Shown: piece after piece, positions 5,854 through 19,063 of the stretch
How the letters are laid out: every line of letters begins with the position of its first letter
How positions within the stretch are numbered: position 1 is the stretch's first letter
Source of the DNA: Dehalococcoidia bacterium
Lineage (GTDB): Bacteria; Chloroflexota; Dehalococcoidia; Plut-88900
DNA: 64,000 nucleotides
NCBI GenBank assembly: GCA_965249275.1
Contig: CBDFLQ010000006.1
Span: 64,001-128,000, forward strand
Reading direction: 5' to 3'
Made by a program: the position numbers and the translations under genes
Notes under the pieces: model-generated
Told to the model about the DNA's origin: nothing
The model's database searches: none
Seen by the model: only the letters and a program-made list of their open reading frames with translations

Positions 5854-7113
5854 TCACCCGATGACCGCTATCGCCTCGACCTCTATGAGGGCCTGGGGAT
5901 CGAGCAGGCGGTTGCATACCGTCGTGGAGGCCGCCGGAAGCTCCGACCCGAAGAACTCCCGTCGCACGTCGATCGCCTTGTGGTAGTTGGGGAGAGCTGC
6001 CTCGTCTATGTAGTCGGTGACCTTCAGCACGTCCTTGAAGCTCGCTCCTCCTGCCTCCAGCACTTCGGCTATGTTCTGATAGGTCTGTCGGGTCTGTGCC
6101 TCCACGTCCCCAATTGCCAAAGCCCCCGACTCCGGGTGATGTCCCGTCGTCCCCGATATGAAGAACAGGTTGCCCTTTTTCACGCCCGGCAGGAATGTAA
6201 TCCCCTGCGCGTGGGCCCGCTCCGCCAACACCTCTTCCTTCTTTCCACCCTTCACCGCCACCATATTAATCTCGATCATCCATTCCGGGGCGTTCAGGGC
6301 CAGGCACACGACACCCGTTGAAGCCGGAAATTCCTCCCCGAAGAACTCTCTCCTCAAGTCCGCCGTCAGCCTGTAGAAGGGCCGTGCCGCCGGGATGATG
6401 TAGTCCCGGGTCATTATCACGTCTTCCCGAGTCACCCCACCCTCTGCCAGTATCATGTCGAACTTCTCGAACAGATAGCGCGTCTGCTCGACCAACGACC
6501 ACGGGCAGGCCCGCTCGTCGTCGTCATCAATGTACCAGGGGGCCTGTCCGGCAGACCACAATATGTCGTTCTTGAACACGCCGGGGCGGTTAGTTCCACC
6601 CTCGTAAGATGCTATGGACTTTTCCGGCGAGGGCGGGAAACCCGGATTGATATACCTCTTCTCGCCGGGCTTGATGTCGAGGACAAGGTCAACGCTCCAG
6701 ATCGCATTCAGGTTCAGGTTGCCCTGCATGTAAAGCCCGGTTCCCGGCGCATAGTTCGGCCCGAAATTGCTTCGCCACGTTTCCGGCGTGACCGTTGGAG
6801 ACGAGCGGAACGCCCTCTTGTAGTGCGACAAAGGAGGACTGCCCGCCGCGGACGTGAAGATCGTCCGATTGGTCATGTCCTCCGGCTTCCCACCCGACGT
6901 CTCGATCAGGAGCTTGTGCTTCTCCATGATCACGTCCATCTGCTCTACCGCATCGCCCGTGCACTCGATCTTCCCCGTCTCCGAGTTCTCACGCTCCGCA
7001 GTCTGCCCCGATAGAAACAGGATTCCGTCCTTCTCCGCCGCCAGAGAGTAGGGCATCTTCGAGTGGTCGAAGTAAGGCCAGTTGGCCGGGTTGATTAGCC
7101 GTCTTTCCGCCAT
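5854..7113 (-). CDS. Protein with three tandem RidA/YjgF domains
   Basis: Start MAERRLIN at 7113 with GGAG RBS; three units LFLSGQTA / LWSAGQAP / LFFISGTTG, each followed by EQ/AQ and ending in IEIN/IEVEA-like strands. Confidence 0.8.
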   Translation of the reverse strand: MAERRLINPANWPYFDHSKMPYSLAAEKDGILFLSGQTAERENSETGKIECTGDAVEQMDVIMEKHKLLIETSGGKPEDMTNRTIFTSAAGSPPLSHYKRAFRSSPTVTPETWRSNFGPNYAPGTGLYMQGNLNLNAIWSVDLVLDIKPGEKRYINPGFPPSPEKSIASYEGGTNRPGVFKNDILWSAGQAPWYIDDDDERACPWSLVEQTRYLFEKFDMILAEGGVTREDVIMTRDYIIPAARPFYRLTADLRREFFGEEFPASTGVVCLALNAPEWMIEINMVAVKGGKKEEVLAERAHAQGITFLPGVKKGNLFFISGTTGHHPESGALAIGDVEAQTRQTYQNIAEVLEAGGASFKDVLKVTDYIDEAALPNYHKAIDVRREFFGSELPAASTTVCNRLLDPQALIEVEAIAVIG

Positions 7114-7156
7114 GTTGTCTCCTTGAAATAGAGTGCTAAATCGTCTAGCCGTCCCG

Positions 7157-8554
7157 TTATGCTTTCGGGAAGTCGGGGCCCGGGTAGGCGGGCACGTATA
7201 TGTCCTCGTATTCCTGCTTGAAGCGCTTCCACACCCTGAGCGTCGCCTCCCGAGCCTTCTCCACCACCTCTCCCTCATCCATGCTCAGCACCTTTCCCTG
7301 TCGCATCACGAACTCGCCGCCCACCATCACCGACTCAACATCCGCAGTCTCTCCGTAGTGCACGAGGTTCGACACCGGGCTGATTGCCGGTACCAGGTGC
7401 GCCCGACCCAAGTCCACGAAGGTCAAATCTGCCAACTTCCCAGCCTCGATTGACCCGAATTCCTGCTCCATACCCACGGCCTTTGCACCGTTTTGAGTCG
7501 CCCAGTCCAGCATCGTCTGGGGCGTCGGGGTGGGGGGATCGTCGTCCCTCAGCCCGCGATTGAGCACTATGCCGACGTTCAGGGCCTGGAACATGTTCTC
7601 GCTCATGTTGTCCGTACCCAGTGTCACGTTCACCCCGGAATCAGTGATATTGGGCATCTTCGGCGCCGGATACCGGCCCGTCCGTGCGCTGGGCGCGGGA
7701 CAGTGGGCCATGTGGGTCCCTGTTTCCGCCAGGATTTCGACGTCCGCCTCATCGCAGAAGAACCAGTGTGCCGCCAGAACGTCGGACCCGAGCCACCCGT
7801 TGTCACGCAGATATGCCGCCGAGGACTTCCCGCTAATCGACCTCACCTGATCCAGTTCTTTCTGGCTCTGCGCCAGGTGCACCGTCCGCCGAAGCCCGTG
7901 CTTCTCCGACAAGTCCAGCAGCTTTCTCAGCATCCACGGGGAACAGTTGTCGGGCGCGTGGGCTGCCACCTGGCACTGCACCCGACCCCCGTCCATCCCA
8001 TGAAACTCCTCGATGAGCCGCTCGGCCCTGTCCAGAAACTCCTGCCCCCACTCCTCCGAATATTCGTATATGCCATACCGGATTTTCAGGTTCAGGGCGT
8101 CTGCACAGCTTTCGCTCAGAAACAACCTCAGCCCCGAGTCCGCCATGGTTTGCGCGTACTGATAGACGTGCCGGAACGGGTCAACCATCGTCGTCGTCCC
8201 CGACCTGATCGCCTCCAGGCACCCGAGAGCGTTCATTGCCTGCCGGTCCTCCGCGGTCATGGCAAAGGAGATCGGCGACATGTATCCGTATATCGCATCC
8301 CCGCCCATGTCCTCCACCGTCCCCCGAAGCACCGTCAGCACCGAGTGAGTATGTGCGTTGACGAAGCCCGGCATAACCGCCCGCCCTGAGGCGTCGATCC
8401 TATCCAGGCTCTCATATTTTCGCCTCATCTCCCCCGACTCCCCCACTTCCAGAATCCTCTTCCCCCGAACTGCAACCGCCCCGTCCTCTATCACCGTACC
8501 TTCGGCGTCGCACGTAATCACAACAGCATTTTCTATCAACGCATCCATAGTCAA
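7157..8554 (-). CDS. Amidohydrolase, ATZ/TRZ/MTA-SAH deaminase-like family
   Basis: VMPGFVNAHTH, EAIRSGTTT, VHLAQS, AHCP, LGTD, GSIEAGKLADL. Confidence 0.88.
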   Translation of the reverse strand: MTMDALIENAVVITCDAEGTVIEDGAVAVRGKRILEVGESGEMRRKYESLDRIDASGRAVMPGFVNAHTHSVLTVLRGTVEDMGGDAIYGYMSPISFAMTAEDRQAMNALGCLEAIRSGTTTMVDPFRHVYQYAQTMADSGLRLFLSESCADALNLKIRYGIYEYSEEWGQEFLDRAERLIEEFHGMDGGRVQCQVAAHAPDNCSPWMLRKLLDLSEKHGLRRTVHLAQSQKELDQVRSISGKSSAAYLRDNGWLGSDVLAAHWFFCDEADVEILAETGTHMAHCPAPSARTGRYPAPKMPNITDSGVNVTLGTDNMSENMFQALNVGIVLNRGLRDDDPPTPTPQTMLDWATQNGAKAVGMEQEFGSIEAGKLADLTFVDLGRAHLVPAISPVSNLVHYGETADVESVMVGGEFVMRQGKVLSMDEGEVVEKAREATLRVWKRFKQEYEDIYVPAYPGPDFPKA

Positions 8555-15318: not shown

Positions 15319-16558
15319 CGATCCACCGCCCGCCATTGAGGACCACAGCAAGGCAAAACTCGCAGTCCTGCGCCGATATCTCAGTGCATACTTTGATAGG
15401 TTAGGTAACATTCCTGCTCGTGATGAATTCAGGCTTGACCTTGTCGATGGGTTTGCCGGAGGGGAAACATTCCAAGACGGTGGCCTCATCGAGTCCGGTA
15501 CACCTCTCATAATGCTGGAAGAGGCCGAAGCTGCGCGAGAAAGGTTGAATCAGAGTCGAAGTAAGCCATTGCTATTCAATTGTAAGTTTCACTTTGTCGA
15601 CGTGAACCCTAACCATACCCAGCATCTTAGGATGGTCCTTGCGGACAGGGGATACCACGTAAATGGTGAGGAGATTGTTGTCCATGACGGACGTTTTGAA
15701 GATGTAGCCGAAGCTATCATCGCAGACGTCCTCATTCGGCAGCCCCGAGCGGGTCGTGCGATTTTCCTTTTGGACCAATGCGGTTTCTCACGAGTATCAC
15801 TTAACCTAGTGAATCGCATTTTCCAGAGGCTGCCGGCGGCGGAGGTTATACTTACGTTTGCAGCGGACAACTTGATCAACCACCTATCAGATACTCCAGA
15901 ACTCATCCGGGCAGTTGCACCTCTTGAATTGACCGAAGCTCACATACGCGACTTAATTGAGCTCAGCAATGGTGATGGTGGAAGGGCACTTGTACAGAGA
16001 GTATTGCGAGGACATATTCGTAACTCAACTGGGGCAACATTCGATACCCCCTTCTACATCCGTCCTAAGGAATCCCGTCGCGCCCTATGGTTTCTTCATC
16101 TTTCTAGGCATCCAACAGCTCGTGACGTGATGATCCAATGCCATTGGAAGAGTTTCAATACGTTCGAACACTACGGTTCAGGTAGTTTCGACATGTTAGG
16201 CTGGGACGCACTAAGACCAGGAGCTGGTACATTGCCTCTATTTCGTTTTGATGAATTTGACGCTGAGCACATGAAGACGAAACTCCTCACATCAATGCCT
16301 CAAGAGTTATATGCTCTAGCAGCAGAAAGTGCGATTACTGTTAACGCTGTTCGGCATATGTTGGCCAACAGGACAGCTGCCAGATTCTCAGACCTAGACG
16401 AAGTCATATTACAGCTTTCTAGGGAAAGAGAATTCGATATCTTGACCACTGACGGGAAGGAGCGTTCTAGAAACCTAACTCGGTTAAGTCCAACTGATCT
16501 GATCGCAGTACCAAGCATGAGACTGCTTCCCGGGCTTTCTCGCATGCCTTTACAATGA
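15296..16558 (+). CDS. tcmP: Three-Cys-motif partner protein TcmP (methyltransferase-like fold)
   Basis: HSKAKL.VLRRYL, VDGFAGG, GTPLI, FLLDQCG, EVILTF; overlaps the DUF5131 gene, its usual partner; GAGGAG RBS. Confidence 0.8.
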   Translation: MPFIWHPNDPPPAIEDHSKAKLAVLRRYLSAYFDRLGNIPARDEFRLDLVDGFAGGETFQDGGLIESGTPLIMLEEAEAARERLNQSRSKPLLFNCKFHFVDVNPNHTQHLRMVLADRGYHVNGEEIVVHDGRFEDVAEAIIADVLIRQPRAGRAIFLLDQCGFSRVSLNLVNRIFQRLPAAEVILTFAADNLINHLSDTPELIRAVAPLELTEAHIRDLIELSNGDGGRALVQRVLRGHIRNSTGATFDTPFYIRPKESRRALWFLHLSRHPTARDVMIQCHWKSFNTFEHYGSGSFDMLGWDALRPGAGTLPLFRFDEFDAEHMKTKLLTSMPQELYALAAESAITVNAVRHMLANRTAARFSDLDEVILQLSREREFDILTTDGKERSRNLTRLSPTDLIAVPSMRLLPGLSRMPLQ

Positions 16559-16633
16559 GCACATAGCGACAAGCCTCATACCCATTATTCCCGTGCCCGG
16601 CATGAGACTCAATCCCCTCCCTTGACCCCACCC

Positions 16634-16999
16634 CCATTCCGAGGCCCCACGAGGAATCTACAGCCCTCTCCCTAATTCCACCTTGTCCGCTGAAACCCAC
16701 CCCCTCCATCCGTCATTCCGGCCCCCGAGCCGGAATCCAGCCCTTCCTTCTACCCAGTATTGAACTAGAGGCCCGCACGGGTGCTGTGCACCCGTGCGGG
16801 CCTCTGTTCTTATCTCCCCCCTAACGTCAATCCCGACTCCGATCGGGAATCCATCCCCATCCCCCCAGTACTGAATTAGAGGCCCACGTGCGTGCTCTGC
16901 ACGCACGTGGGCCTCTATTCTTATCTCCCCCTCTCCCTTGAAGGCCCTAAGGAAGAGGGGGATCAAGGGGGTGAGGGTTCCCCGGTGGGGCTGGGGCGG
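16634..16999. repeat. Dense cluster of REP-like palindromes
   Basis: Family A copy; GTCATTCCGGCCCCCGAGCCGGAATCCA; two 19-bp hairpin units (16766-16806, 16877-16917); CCCCTCTCCCTT element matching 4583-4657. Confidence 0.8.
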
Positions 17000-17026
17000 T
17001 GTCTTCCCAAGTGTGACACGAACCCC

Positions 17027-17056
17027 TTGACCCTGCCCGAACACCCGTGCTACTAT
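17027..17056 (+). promoter_or_regulatory. Putative sigma70 promoter
   Basis: TTGACC-N18-TACTAT with TG extended -10; the same TTGACC -35 precedes tRNA-Gly and the HesB gene. Confidence 0.6.
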
Positions 17057-17244
17057 CCCCACCGTTCGAACACCAACCCAACCACCTTAAGGAGGAACCA
17101 AAAACCCAGGGAAGCCCACCCGACCCATCCGAGGACTCAACGCCCAAGCCCATCCCAACGGCCCTCACACGGGGCCCGCGGCTCAAGCGACCGGCGCCAT
17201 CTCCTCATCCCCACCGGGTCCCGTGCCCCTTCCCTGACCACCCA

Positions 17245-17674
17245 GGCGATGGAAAGACGCCCTGGTTCGCTATCGTTCCATGTGAGGCTCCTAACGGAGA
17301 TGCCGCTCCTTCAAGCGGAATAGCGGTCGGATAGGCCCGGCGCCGAGGTCCTCTCGGTACACCGTCCGCTTAATTCAGCCGGGAGCCGGTGGTCCCTGCA
17401 CTCCGGGTCGCACCGGCAAACTTGGACATATTACGCCTGCAAGAGGCTCCACCCGGACGCTGGACGAGCCTCCTAGCCGCCCTATAGCGGTGCAGCCAAC
17501 CCCTCGGAGTCAGGCTCGGACTTGGTGGCCCTGACGGTCCCTGCCCATGTCCAGCGTATACAGGGCCAAAGGCCGCAGCAGCGGCAAAAGCGGGCCGGAC
17601 GCCCTTGCCCCGGGGTGTCGGAGCACCCGAAGCACAGGAACGGGGGCAGCGTCCAGCAAGCGTCTTTCATCGCC
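17245..17674 (+). ncRNA. Candidate large structured ncRNA of unknown family (about 430 nt)
   Basis: Ends pair (GGCGATGGAAAGACGC/GCGTCTTTCATCGCC) and continue inward as a segmented helix; at least 8 internal stems, two crossing pairings; G-U wobbles favour the + strand; no credible ORF. Confidence 0.62.
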
Positions 17675-17761
17675 AACCACCCAGACAGAACAACCAAAAC
17701 CCCACCCTCCCACAACTGAATAAACCGGCGTGTCACTATCCCACCCAACGAGTGTCCTCCC

Positions 17762-17791
17762 TTGACCCCACCCCCCGCCCCCCTCTAATAT
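17762..17791 (+). promoter_or_regulatory. Putative sigma70 promoter for tRNA-Gly
   Basis: TTGACC-N18-TAATAT, 11 nt upstream of the tRNA. Confidence 0.6.
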
Positions 17792-17802
17792 CTCCCCGCG
17801 GT

Positions 17803-17877
17803 GCGGGAGTAGCTCAGTGGTAGAGCCCCTGCCTTCCAAGCAGGCTGTCGCCGGTTCGAATCCGGTCTCCCGCTCCA
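17803..17877 (+). tRNA. tRNA-Gly (TCC)
   Basis: GCGGGAG/CTCCCGC acceptor stem, D arm GCTC/GAGC, anticodon arm CCTGC-CTTCCAA-GCAGG, GTTCGAA T loop, encoded CCA. Confidence 0.97.
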
Positions 17878-17878
17878 C

Positions 17879-19063
17879 TCACAGGCTCGCCAACGCCTGT
17901 CCCAGGTCCGCCTCAATGTCCTCCGCCGACTCTATCCCGCACGACATCCGGATCAGCCCGCCGTAGATTCCAACCTCCTCCCGCTCCCCCTCCGTCAAAG
18001 ACCTGTGCGACGTCTTCGCCGGGTGCGACACCGTCGTGCACGTCTCCCCCAGGCTCGCCGCAAACCTGATCATCTTCAGAGACCGTATGAACCTCGACGC
18101 CGCCTCCACCCCACCCCTCAGCTCGAACGACACCATGCTCCCGAATCCACCCTCCAACGTCGACTTCGCCAACTCATGCTGCGGGTGACTGTCCAGACCC
18201 GGATAGTGAACGGCCGACACCGCCGGGTGTCCCGACAGGAACTCCGCCGCCCTCATGGCGTTTTCGCAAGTGCGAGCCACCCGCAAGGGCAGCGTCCGTA
18301 TCCCCCGCACGATTAGCCACGCCGCAAACGGGTCCAACGTACTTCCCCACACCCTGTTCGACTGCCGTATCGACGCCATCGCCTCGAACCGACCCGCCGC
18401 CACCCCTCCCATCACGTCCGAGTGCCCGCCTAACAGCTTCGTCGCGCTGTGGATTGTCACGTCAGCGCCCAGTTCCAGGGGCCGCATCAGCAGCGGCGTC
18501 GCCAGCGTGTTGTCCACTACCACCTGCACACCCCTCTCACCCGCCAACTGGGCAATCCCCTCCACGTCCGTCAGCCGCAGCAAAGGGTTCGTTATCGACT
18601 CTACGAGAATGACCTTCGGAGACCGCTCTAAAGCCCGCTCAACCAGCCCCAGGTCCGTCACATCCACGAACTCCACCCGAACCCCGAGCCTAGGCAGGTG
18701 TTGCCTCAGAAGCAGGTTTGTACCCCCGTACAGCACGTCCCCCGCCAAAACCGTGTCTCCAGCCTCGACCATGGATAACAGCGTGTTACCGATCGCCCCC
18801 ATCCCCGAGGCAAACGCCACCGCATCGTCGGCATTCTCCAGTTCGGCCACGACCCTCTCCAGGGTCTCAACGTTGGGGTTCCCATCCCGGGAGTAGATGA
18901 ACCCATCCTGGCTGCCCGCATAGATATCGTCCAGCAGCTCCAGGCTCTCGACTTCAAAGACGGAACCCTGGTAAATGGGCGCCATCAAGGGCCTAGTCGC
19001 CGACTCCACGTCCCTCCCCGCCGACGCGCATATACTCTCCACCGACCGCCTCTTGCCGTTCAC
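17879..19063 (-). CDS. Cys/Met metabolism PLP enzyme (cystathionine gamma-synthase/lyase or methionine gamma-lyase family)
   Basis: YSRDGNP, FASGMGAI, LYGGT, ESITNP, VVDNT, HSATKLLGGHSD, YPGL, ASLG, IRMSCGIE. Confidence 0.92.
   Translation of the reverse strand: MNGKRRSVESICASAGRDVESATRPLMAPIYQGSVFEVESLELLDDIYAGSQDGFIYSRDGNPNVETLERVVAELENADDAVAFASGMGAIGNTLLSMVEAGDTVLAGDVLYGGTNLLLRQHLPRLGVRVEFVDVTDLGLVERALERSPKVILVESITNPLLRLTDVEGIAQLAGERGVQVVVDNTLATPLLMRPLELGADVTIHSATKLLGGHSDVMGGVAAGRFEAMASIRQSNRVWGSTLDPFAAWLIVRGIRTLPLRVARTCENAMRAAEFLSGHPAVSAVHYPGLDSHPQHELAKSTLEGGFGSMVSFELRGGVEAASRFIRSLKMIRFAASLGETCTTVSHPAKTSHRSLTEGEREEVGIYGGLIRMSCGIESAEDIEADLGQALASL

Follow-up and report, generated by a model that had tools for sequence, protein, structure and literature searches.

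A structured RNA upstream of tRNA-Gly as the probable cargo of a non-autonomous, promoter-targeted transposon in a Dehalococcoidia bacterium

The window analysed here, a 64-kb stretch of DNA comprising positions 64,001 to 128,000 of contig CBDFLQ010000006.1 in the Dehalococcoidia bacterium assembly GCA_965249275.1, contains at 17245–17674 an unannotated and intricately folding sequence upstream of a tRNA-Gly gene. From the sequence it had been proposed to be a novel large structured RNA (the original prediction). This 430-nt fold proves to be one part of a longer unit, all of whose parts lie on the + strand. At the left is a decayed end (17010–17026), in which only the inner part of a left terminal inverted repeat, AGTGTGACACGAACCCC, is kept; the full 27-nt repeat is gone, and nothing there matches the left-repeat consensus within 9 errors. 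A GTGACAC block, common to nearly all copies, stands beside the −35 hexamer of the element's own sigma70 promoter (17027–17056; TTGACC-18-TACTAT, with TG upstream of the −10), from which transcription would start near 17063. An orphan Shine–Dalgarno sequence, AAGGAGG (17089–17095), sits about 27 nt past the inferred start and opens a conserved leader, module B (17089–17244), which is common to all core types. There follow a core of type T1 (17245–17674), closed by helix P1 (17245–17260 with 17660–17674), a C/A-rich, G/U-poor tail (17675–17729) ending in AACTGAATAA at 17714–17723, and a decayed right terminal inverted repeat (17730–17756) with 7/27 differences from the consensus. The target side (17757–17791) begins with CTCCC, 5 nt matching the target duplication, and continues as the host promoter of tRNA-Gly (17762–17791; TTGACC-18-TAATAT); the tRNA-Gly (UCC) itself, an Rfam match at 17803–17877, is the downstream host gene and lies outside the element. 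We infer a transcription unit of ∼620–690 nt (about 17063 to 17680–17756), not of 430 nt. The real find is a family of RNA-carrying, promoter-seeking, non-autonomous transposons, of which the window holds one copy.

The pairings reported within 17245–17674, 17 in all, are complementary after correction of two 1-nt coordinate slips. The closing helix consists of 17245–17250 with 17669–17674 and 17252–17260 with 17660–17668, with one bulged G; inward of it come CTGG/CCAG, CGCT/AGCG, CGTTCC/GGAACG and TGTG/CACA, eight internal stems and three crossing pairings, and the long segmented outer helix is recovered in the minimum free energy (MFE) fold. Measured against 100 dinucleotide shuffles, the MFE of the region is better than average (−195.9 versus −181.4 ± 6.7 kcal/mol, z = −2.17), but 3/100 shuffles equal it. 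An Rfam 15 covariance search of the whole window at the gathering score, and of 17000–17900 at E ≤ 10, returned no family matching the fold; only tRNA-Gly passed. The claim that the sequence is none of the known families stands, as does the stated lack of the signature motifs of RNase P, tmRNA and introns, for which there was no covariance-model match. RNase P is excluded, moreover, because the genome has its own at C7:78340–78684 (293 bits). Twelve copies of other subtypes searched at E ≤ 1 likewise matched nothing in Rfam, save for one minus-strand Twister-sister match (E = 0.37). That match (L143:296–387, equivalent to G000:C7:250825–250916) scores 22.6 bits with a cut-off of 34, falls in a singleton core type on the strand opposite the element's promoter, and is most likely due to chance.

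As the original prediction held, there is no credible open reading frame (ORF): six ORFs of 65–143 aa overlap the region, 0/6 match Pfam, and indels among the copies break the frames. One of them, at 16892–17323, has a codon-like pattern in one short segment, but it lacks a start downstream of the promoter, contains TAG in some copies and loses its frame through 1-, 2- and 4-nt indels among copies, and was rejected. The AAGGAGG sequence is invariant in 69/69 aligned leaders (alignment A2, from 8 genomes), no ATG, GTG or TTG stands 5–12 nt downstream of it in the window copy, and the indels that directly follow it in these 69 leaders are not multiples of three. It may serve as a 5′ stabiliser of the RNA. 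The predicted sigma70-type promoter is indeed present, but about 190 nt upstream of the fold. Between 16550 and 17900 there are 3 promoter-like sites, compared with 0.3 expected in shuffles, and the hexamers of the element's promoter are kept in 10/10 aligned full-length copies and in the 56-row own-genome alignment.

The assembly of the window organism (G000; 2.9 Mb, 7 contigs, 87% complete) contains many further copies. A search of it with 17200–17720 gave 50 matches, 10 of them near full length, at 79–100% identity. The module of promoter and leader (17007–17244) occurs in 56 places and the 430-nt T1 core in 10 copies, while a 3′ module recurs ∼430–600 nt downstream of many leaders, with quite different sequence between. 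The element is a dispersed unit of ∼0.75 kb present in ∼55 copies, which by that estimate (55 copies of ∼0.75 kb) make up ∼1.4% of the genome. Every copy has, in order, the promoter directly inside the left repeat, AAGGAGG, the leader, a P1-closed core and the C/A-rich tail; one or more small CCGCC...GGAGG hairpins often lie between the tail and the right repeat.

A 27–32-nt motif beginning TGATCCCGTTCAC opens about 19 copies, and about 23 are closed by a motif with CCGAACGAGTACA as its last letters, which repeats the left motif imperfectly in inverted form; the termini are therefore 5′-TG...CA-3′. The 27-nt consensus sequences of the two ends, that of the right derived from 23 ends, are inverted copies of each other. 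Both repeats are found in 16 copies, delimiting units of 739–902 bp. Ten of these 16 are flanked by a perfect 5-bp target duplication (two of the ten being one locus on two contigs), three by a duplication matching at 4/5 positions and one by a duplication offset by one; two have none. With units of this length, no ORF of the window copy matching Pfam and frames broken by indels, there is no transposase gene inside.

Comparison with congeners, of which 8 were available and G002 is the closest, revealed empty sites at both of two loci tested. The element at C5:615049–615787 is present in G000, G002 and G005 and absent from G001, G004 and G007; the flanks are separated in G001 by 27 nt and contain a single GCATT, compared with GCATT-element-GCATT in G000. 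The element at C6:177385–178152 is present in G002 and absent from G005, where the flank alignments abut and a single tAGGT takes the place of the CAGGT found on both sides in G000. At a third locus, L003, the interval is much shorter in G007, as judged from interval length alone. From general transposon biology, inverted repeats, a fixed 5-bp duplication and empty sites together suggest a DDE-type cut-and-paste or copy-in mechanism. We regard the transposon anatomy as very nearly certain.

Among the sister genomes only the closest, G002, has the window copy, with 95–96% identity that extends to its neighbours; the G004 alignment at this locus starts at the tRNA promoter. Since the left end of the window copy is decayed, its target duplication is a putative one, read from the right side alone. 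It is an old insertion, probably rendered immobile by its decayed ends. Promoter, leader, core and tail are all intact, and the copy is predicted to be still capable of being transcribed.

The ends and duplications of the family bear on two other classes of mobile RNA. A retroelement, be it an ORF-less group II intron or some other RNA-copied repeat, would suit the size of ∼700 nt and the helix that joins both ends of the core. However, the copies include the upstream promoter and are bounded by inverted repeats and duplications, which points to a DNA intermediate; in addition, the reverse transcriptase domain PF00078 has 0 matches in the 87%-complete G000, and Rfam gave no group II match. We consider a retroelement scarcely credible. 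The second class is suggested by HEARO and the omega-RNAs of IscB and TnpB, structured RNAs of some hundreds of nucleotides that multiply with mobile DNA: the element could be the guide or scaffold RNA of an RNA-guided mobile-element protein (a TnpB/IscB omega-RNA or an IS110-type bridge RNA), which would have spread in stand-alone form. Its many copies, its structured RNA and its tie to mobile DNA would agree with this. Unlike those RNAs, the element has no Rfam match to HEARO or the IS605-orfB families, and the TnpB-type domain PF07282 has 0 matches in G000 (87% complete; the search did not extend to IscB or IS110 proteins). Among the copies no guide-like segment peculiar to a single copy was noticed, the variable parts being common to subfamilies. 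Inverted-repeat ends with 5-bp duplications are not the insertion mode of IS200/IS605 or IS110 elements and imply another transposition chemistry. A guide RNA is a most improbable identity for the element.

The right ends of the elements lie at a fixed position relative to promoters. In 14/22 copies a −35-like hexamer (at least 4/6 matches to TTGACA) adjoins the 5-bp duplication, at offset 5 from the right repeat, as compared with 0–1 at each of 15 other offsets, and 20/22 right ends have a −10-like hexamer at offsets 28–29; two right ends, one at a duplicate locus on a small contig and one a partial tandem end, were left out. The spacers between these hexamers are unrelated, and the promoters therefore belong to the host and not to the element. 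The empty site of G001 represents such a target intact, with GCATT followed by TTGGAC-17-TATAAT and then tRNA-Pro. Elements are always co-oriented with the downstream host gene. Pfam domains were found in 19/20 downstream co-oriented ORFs, which are functionally unrelated: they include UvrA, aspartate-semialdehyde dehydrogenase (Asd), FAD synthetase (RibF), peptide deformylase (Def), Lgt, succinate dehydrogenase flavoprotein (SdhA), permeases and oxidoreductases; two further copies, among the 22 examined, precede tRNA genes. The constant tie to one gene family or pathway that marks a riboswitch or cis-leader was not seen among these 19 annotated genes and 2 tRNAs. The tRNA-Gly stands next to the window copy because its promoter (17762–17791) was the insertion target, and the proposed link between the fold and this tRNA gene dissolves into the general preference for sites just upstream of promoters. 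The element provides a clean case of promoter-targeted integration.

What lies between leader and tail differs from copy to copy. The interiors of the G000 copies cluster in groups of 13, 12, 10 (T1), 6, 4, 4, 2, 2, 1, 1 and 1. Over 8 genomes there are 140 distinct cores, forming 9 clusters of at least 4 members and about four looser superfamilies. The leaders and tails of different core types are 80–94% identical, whereas the cores of different superfamilies are unalignable; T1, T2, T4 and T8 cores have blocks in common such as ACAGCCAACC...GGAGCC. At the site orthologous to the T1 copy C7:585563–586211, G002 and G005 have the same flanks, leader and tail around an interior that is unalignable and of other length, and the C5:615049 locus in G005 likewise has a different core within the same frame. 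Within G000, the 9-kb contig C4 repeats at 6576–7440 the sequence of C7:585488–586288, with the same flanks, the same duplication (GCGGA) and the same downstream gene region, but with a T4 core in place of the T1 core at C7. Such a pair would arise if the assembly mixes strains, or if a recent duplication was accompanied by core exchange. Core exchange is most simply explained by recombination between copies inside the common frame, although a dedicated exchange at the invariant P1 sequences is conceivable.

Hairpin units of ∼20 nt, GGAAC(A/G)TCCGCCT-NNN-GGAGGA (or ...GGGCGG), are inserted one to three times in leaders and tails. They resemble a mini-repeat in their own right, examples being found at G000:C6:148091+, C7:805308− and C7:235815+.

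Homologues were found in the organism's own genome and beyond it, the element being present in 8/8 sister species searched. Neither 3 other genera of the family nor 29 further families of the class yielded it; one match outside the genus, in G031, was rejected as a 39-nt, chance-like match (32 relatives searched). In a sample of 301 genomes from the class, the leader occurs in 9, all of this uncultured genus, and in 0/292 others. A pattern scan of species-representative genomes returned only six complete chromosomes named 'MAG: Dehalococcoidia bacterium', and collections of phages and plasmids gave no match. When metagenomes were scanned with a gapped 20-base pattern, 120 stretches were reported; together with 7 viral contigs these made 127 loci for screening, of which 2 were real elements. 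None of the viral contigs (0/7) was real, and the remaining matches were due to chance. In the text that full-text literature searches returned, no description of such an element was found.

These data decide the fate of the idea from which the analysis started, namely that of a single-copy, host-encoded large non-coding RNA in the manner of OLE, ROOL, GOLLD or raiA, tied to tRNA-Gly. The element is large, ornate, promoter-driven and outside Rfam, all of which would fit. The idea is contradicted by ∼55 copies with transposon ends, target duplications and empty sites, and by the finding that only 2/22 examined copies precede a tRNA; a distribution confined to one genus and the presence of different cores at one orthologous locus are, moreover, unlike a conserved host gene. 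It can be given very little credence.

Whether the fold matters as RNA was addressed by comparing the cores. Among 35 distinct T1 cores from 7 genomes, 92.5% of cells were paired over the 104 pairs tested, which included three crossing helices, as compared with 35–44% in slid controls, in which helix partners are moved by 1–3 columns. Double changes were seen in 19/104 pairs, against 4–11 in the slid controls, and for four of five measures 0/500 shuffles came up to the real alignment. Variability is lower in paired than in unpaired columns (0.061 versus 0.148), and two loop positions have insertions of variable hairpins. In P1 the outer 8 bp (GGCGAUGG/CCAUCGCC) hardly differ among the 140 cores, while its inner pairs co-change across core types: GACGCC/GGCGUC, GGUCC/GGACC, GACAC/GUGUC and GAAGCCC/GGGCCUC. 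This co-change is the strongest covariation signal. For seven core types, RNAalifold gave 56–122 consensus pairs each, with 95–99% canonical cells and more double changes than in the slid controls (22 versus 2–7, 4 versus 0–1, 3 versus 0–2, 9 versus 0–4, 6 versus 0–4, 6 versus 0–4 and 7 versus 0–2). The leader, of ∼155 nt, contains long invariant blocks and has a weak consensus fold, with 17 pairs, 2 of them with double changes (n = 69, 8 genomes).

The G-U wobbles that had been taken to place the RNA on the + strand are only partly convincing. All 104 pairs together have 102 G.U and 107 A.C cells, showing no bias; when 11 poorly aligned pairs (those with >20% mismatches) are dropped, the figures become 99 and 43. 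The plus strand is assigned mainly because of the promoter, the wobble evidence being weak.

RNA-library contigs match 17089–17678; they come from 4 runs in 3 studies, two labelled sponge metagenome, and three of the contigs have 0–1 differences over 89–183 nt. The same libraries gave no cover on the promoter (17003–17069), nor on the protein genes to either side (16400–16667 and 17941–18400), but element copy number could account for this contrast, which we do not count as evidence.

At the 3′ end of the window copy no intrinsic terminator was found. The 50 nt after P1 contain on average over 56 copies C 40.5%, G 9.4%, A 41.1% and T 9.0%, in a genome with C 30.7% and G 28.4%; tails with C ≥ 40% and G ≤ 12% occur in 28/56 copies, compared with 2.2% of random genome windows. 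A tail so rich in C and poor in G points to a Rho-loading site and transcript end. Consistent with this, each of 8/8 sister genomes has one ∼450-aa ORF with a Rho RNA-binding domain.

These features of the tail also accommodate an alternative in which the RNA acts in cis, the element being a mobile regulatory cassette that allows conditional read-through of the tail and host promoter, with the core as sensor. That the element invariably shares the orientation of the host gene, whose −35 is 5 bp away, that it has a Rho-like tail and no intrinsic 3′ terminator in a genus where Rho is present in 8/8 sister genomes, and that several core types share one vehicle, are all in keeping with such a role. 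On the other hand, the genes downstream have no function in common and retain promoters of their own, there is no sign of read-through, and co-orientation could equally reflect an asymmetric target preference. We consider action in cis an unlikely, though not a negligible, alternative.

The element would depend on a transposase supplied in trans. G000 has 22 genes for transposases with an rve domain, distributed among three insertion sequences (ISs) whose types all best match the IS481 model: a 1056-bp IS in 12 copies, a 1299-bp IS in 8 copies and a third type in 2 copies. One copy of the 1056-bp IS lies in the window at ∼1042–2097 (G000:C6:65042–66097, window position 1042 being C6:65042), with a 320-aa transposase ORF at 1106–2068. 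It has TGTAAG...CTACA ends, makes 5-bp duplications (ATTCC or GGAAT), and is always located inside REP-like (repetitive extragenic palindromic) hairpins of the form GTCATTCC...GGAATC; the RNA-carrying element, by contrast, inserts at promoters. The other two ISs share with the element a terminal TGTA and a GT(A/G)ACA block ∼20 nt in, as judged by eye. Because the genome has 22 such genes in three ISs, one of which makes 5-bp duplications, we believe it probable that an IS481-family DDE transposase moves the element in trans. The left-repeat pattern occurs only at left ends of elements, apart from three solo sites in G000, and the interior of the element shows only 11–13-nt chance matches to the genome's ISs, antisense included.

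Taken together, we put at about 0.8 the probability of a non-autonomous DNA transposon that carries an RNA gene and nothing else, the 430-nt fold being its core. The initial observation was right and its reading as a novel large structured RNA half right: structure, position outside Rfam, own promoter, compensatory changes and RNA-library contigs all speak for a new large RNA, but not for a single RNA gene. That selection acts on the structure of the RNA we think likely, with rather less assurance than the transposon anatomy.

Several observations weigh against our conclusion. Folding energy alone is weak (z = −2.17), and the minus strand folds better (z = −3.19); G.U exceeds A.C only after filtering. 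Some 39 of the ∼55 copies, that in the window included, lack one or both recognisable repeats, so that the transposon anatomy is read from a minority of copies. The T1 covariation is modest, and the structure tested was derived from one of the aligned sequences, which favours it; the RNAalifold structures of the seven types were fitted to the same alignments in which they were scored. The leader is conserved in sequence with almost no covariation, which makes a role at the level of DNA possible. From the RNA-library contigs one can read neither strand nor ends, and their template need not have been RNA. In G000 (87% complete) the Rho RNA-binding domain was not found, probably because of a gap in this 7-contig assembly. 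The ends of the element resemble IS481-type ends only slightly and by eye, too little to name a partner, and in G000, G002 and G005 no inverted pair of element-type ends was found around a gene: G000 has one chance-like pair, and G002 and G005 have none.

Some of these points would be expected if the element were an ordinary MITE (miniature inverted-repeat transposable element), with a fold that is meaningless as RNA and helices kept by the youth of the copies or by palindromes acting in DNA, as in transposase binding or recombination. Same-type copies are 79–96% identical and most of the stems never vary, and the modest z of the fold, the better minus strand, the equality of G.U and A.C before filtering and the leader conserved without covariation agree with such a view. 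MITEs normally lose everything save their ends, however, whereas every copy here retains a complete promoter directed at the fold. In core types that cannot be aligned, P1 persists with other inner pairs, seven types have 56–122 consensus pairs and more double changes than slid controls, hairpins are inserted in loops, paired columns are the less variable, and RNA-library contigs match the element. An ordinary MITE is for these reasons an improbable explanation, though one with some weight.

The sequence of events that we favour for the RNA-carrying transposon is as follows. An IS481-family transposase would mobilize the element in trans to a host promoter, where the element's own promoter would yield an RNA of ∼620–690 nt, stabilized by the orphan Shine–Dalgarno sequence near its 5′ end. 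The conserved leader and the invariant outer part of P1 might be common handles, the core being an exchangeable structured module, of which there are at least 9 types and of which different types are found at the same orthologous site. The C-rich, G-poor tail would load Rho, so that transcription stops before the host promoter. Our leading guess is that the RNA is bound by protein, and either works for the element or extends by conditional read-through into the host gene. Any specific function is, however, at best a doubtful proposition. This applies also to the possibility of a mobile modular riboregulator, which homes upstream of host promoters and there installs a second promoter, a sensor core and a Rho-dependent stop; we hold it to be speculative, but if it were true, host genes would gain a new conditional input. 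In a bolder variant of the riboregulator, the RNA may help to direct the transposase to promoters.

MITEs and mobile insertion cassettes are non-autonomous elements with IS-type inverted repeats, the cassettes carrying passenger genes. The element resembles them in having no transposase, terminal inverted repeats, a fixed target duplication, many copies, and presence or absence among relatives. It differs from them in being three to five times longer than typical bacterial MITEs, in that its interior is not a deleted IS but a complete RNA expression unit with exchangeable cores, and in that its insertion is aimed at one position relative to promoters. With IS481-family ISs, three of which occur in the same genome, it has in common TG...CA-type ends and a short target duplication, but its repeats match theirs, by eye, only in the terminal TGT(A) and in a GT(A/G)ACA block at similar distance. 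Size, many helices, possible pseudoknots and an own promoter recall OLE, ROOL, GOLLD and raiA, and such large ornate RNAs sometimes adjoin tRNA genes; those are single or prophage genes, however, no covariance model matches, and here unrelated cores occupy one frame in a 55-copy family. The Correia, ERIC and BOX sequences are dispersed transcribed repeats that fold as RNA and can bring promoters, but they are of 100–200 bp, co-transcribed, and simple and hairpin-like in fold, whereas in this case a dedicated promoter drives a 430-nt multi-helix core.

Bacterial MITE-type elements have been thought to be free of cargo and large ornate RNAs to be single host or phage genes; here the two meet, the only passenger being an RNA of some 650 nt with its own promoter and a constrained structure, which exists in several unrelated core versions. 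Were the RNA to serve the element, it would be an RNA cofactor for a DDE transposon; were it to serve the host, the element would be a ready-made means of spreading RNA genes or regulatory leaders through a genome. The 140 distinct cores are natural variants for structure work. In practice, a lone structured intergenic RNA calls first of all for a search of its own genome for further copies.

Upstream of the element in the window, 16745–16935 contains two tandem copies of another dispersed repeat, module A, which occupies ∼25 or more places in the genome and is often found directly upstream of the RNA elements. Each copy of module A has a 19-bp GC-rich hairpin followed by TTCTTATCTC, a terminator-like arrangement (16766–16806 and 16877–16917), and a GGGGGTGAGGG tract. 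Two REP-like hairpins lie further upstream, at 16637–16665 (CATTCCGAGGCCCCACGAGGAATC) and 16708–16740 (GTCATTCCGGCCCCCGAGCCGGAATC). The latter is covered by RNA-library contigs to a very high summed depth of 87–334 in three of four runs and to one of 3 in the fourth; dissimilar sequence flanks the covered hairpin, and the motif must therefore be a frequent one in other transcripts or organisms.

Outside the window, a solo perfect left repeat at G000:C6:928804–928830 (minus strand) is followed by CCCCTTGCGA-17-TAAAAT, then by a CIRCE-like inverted repeat, TTAGCACTC-N9-GAGTGCTAA, and by groES–groEL. This solo repeat raised doubt as to whether the repeats are transposon ends at all, a doubt that the empty sites and the target duplications removed. 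A left-end remnant of the element seems to underlie the chaperonin promoter.

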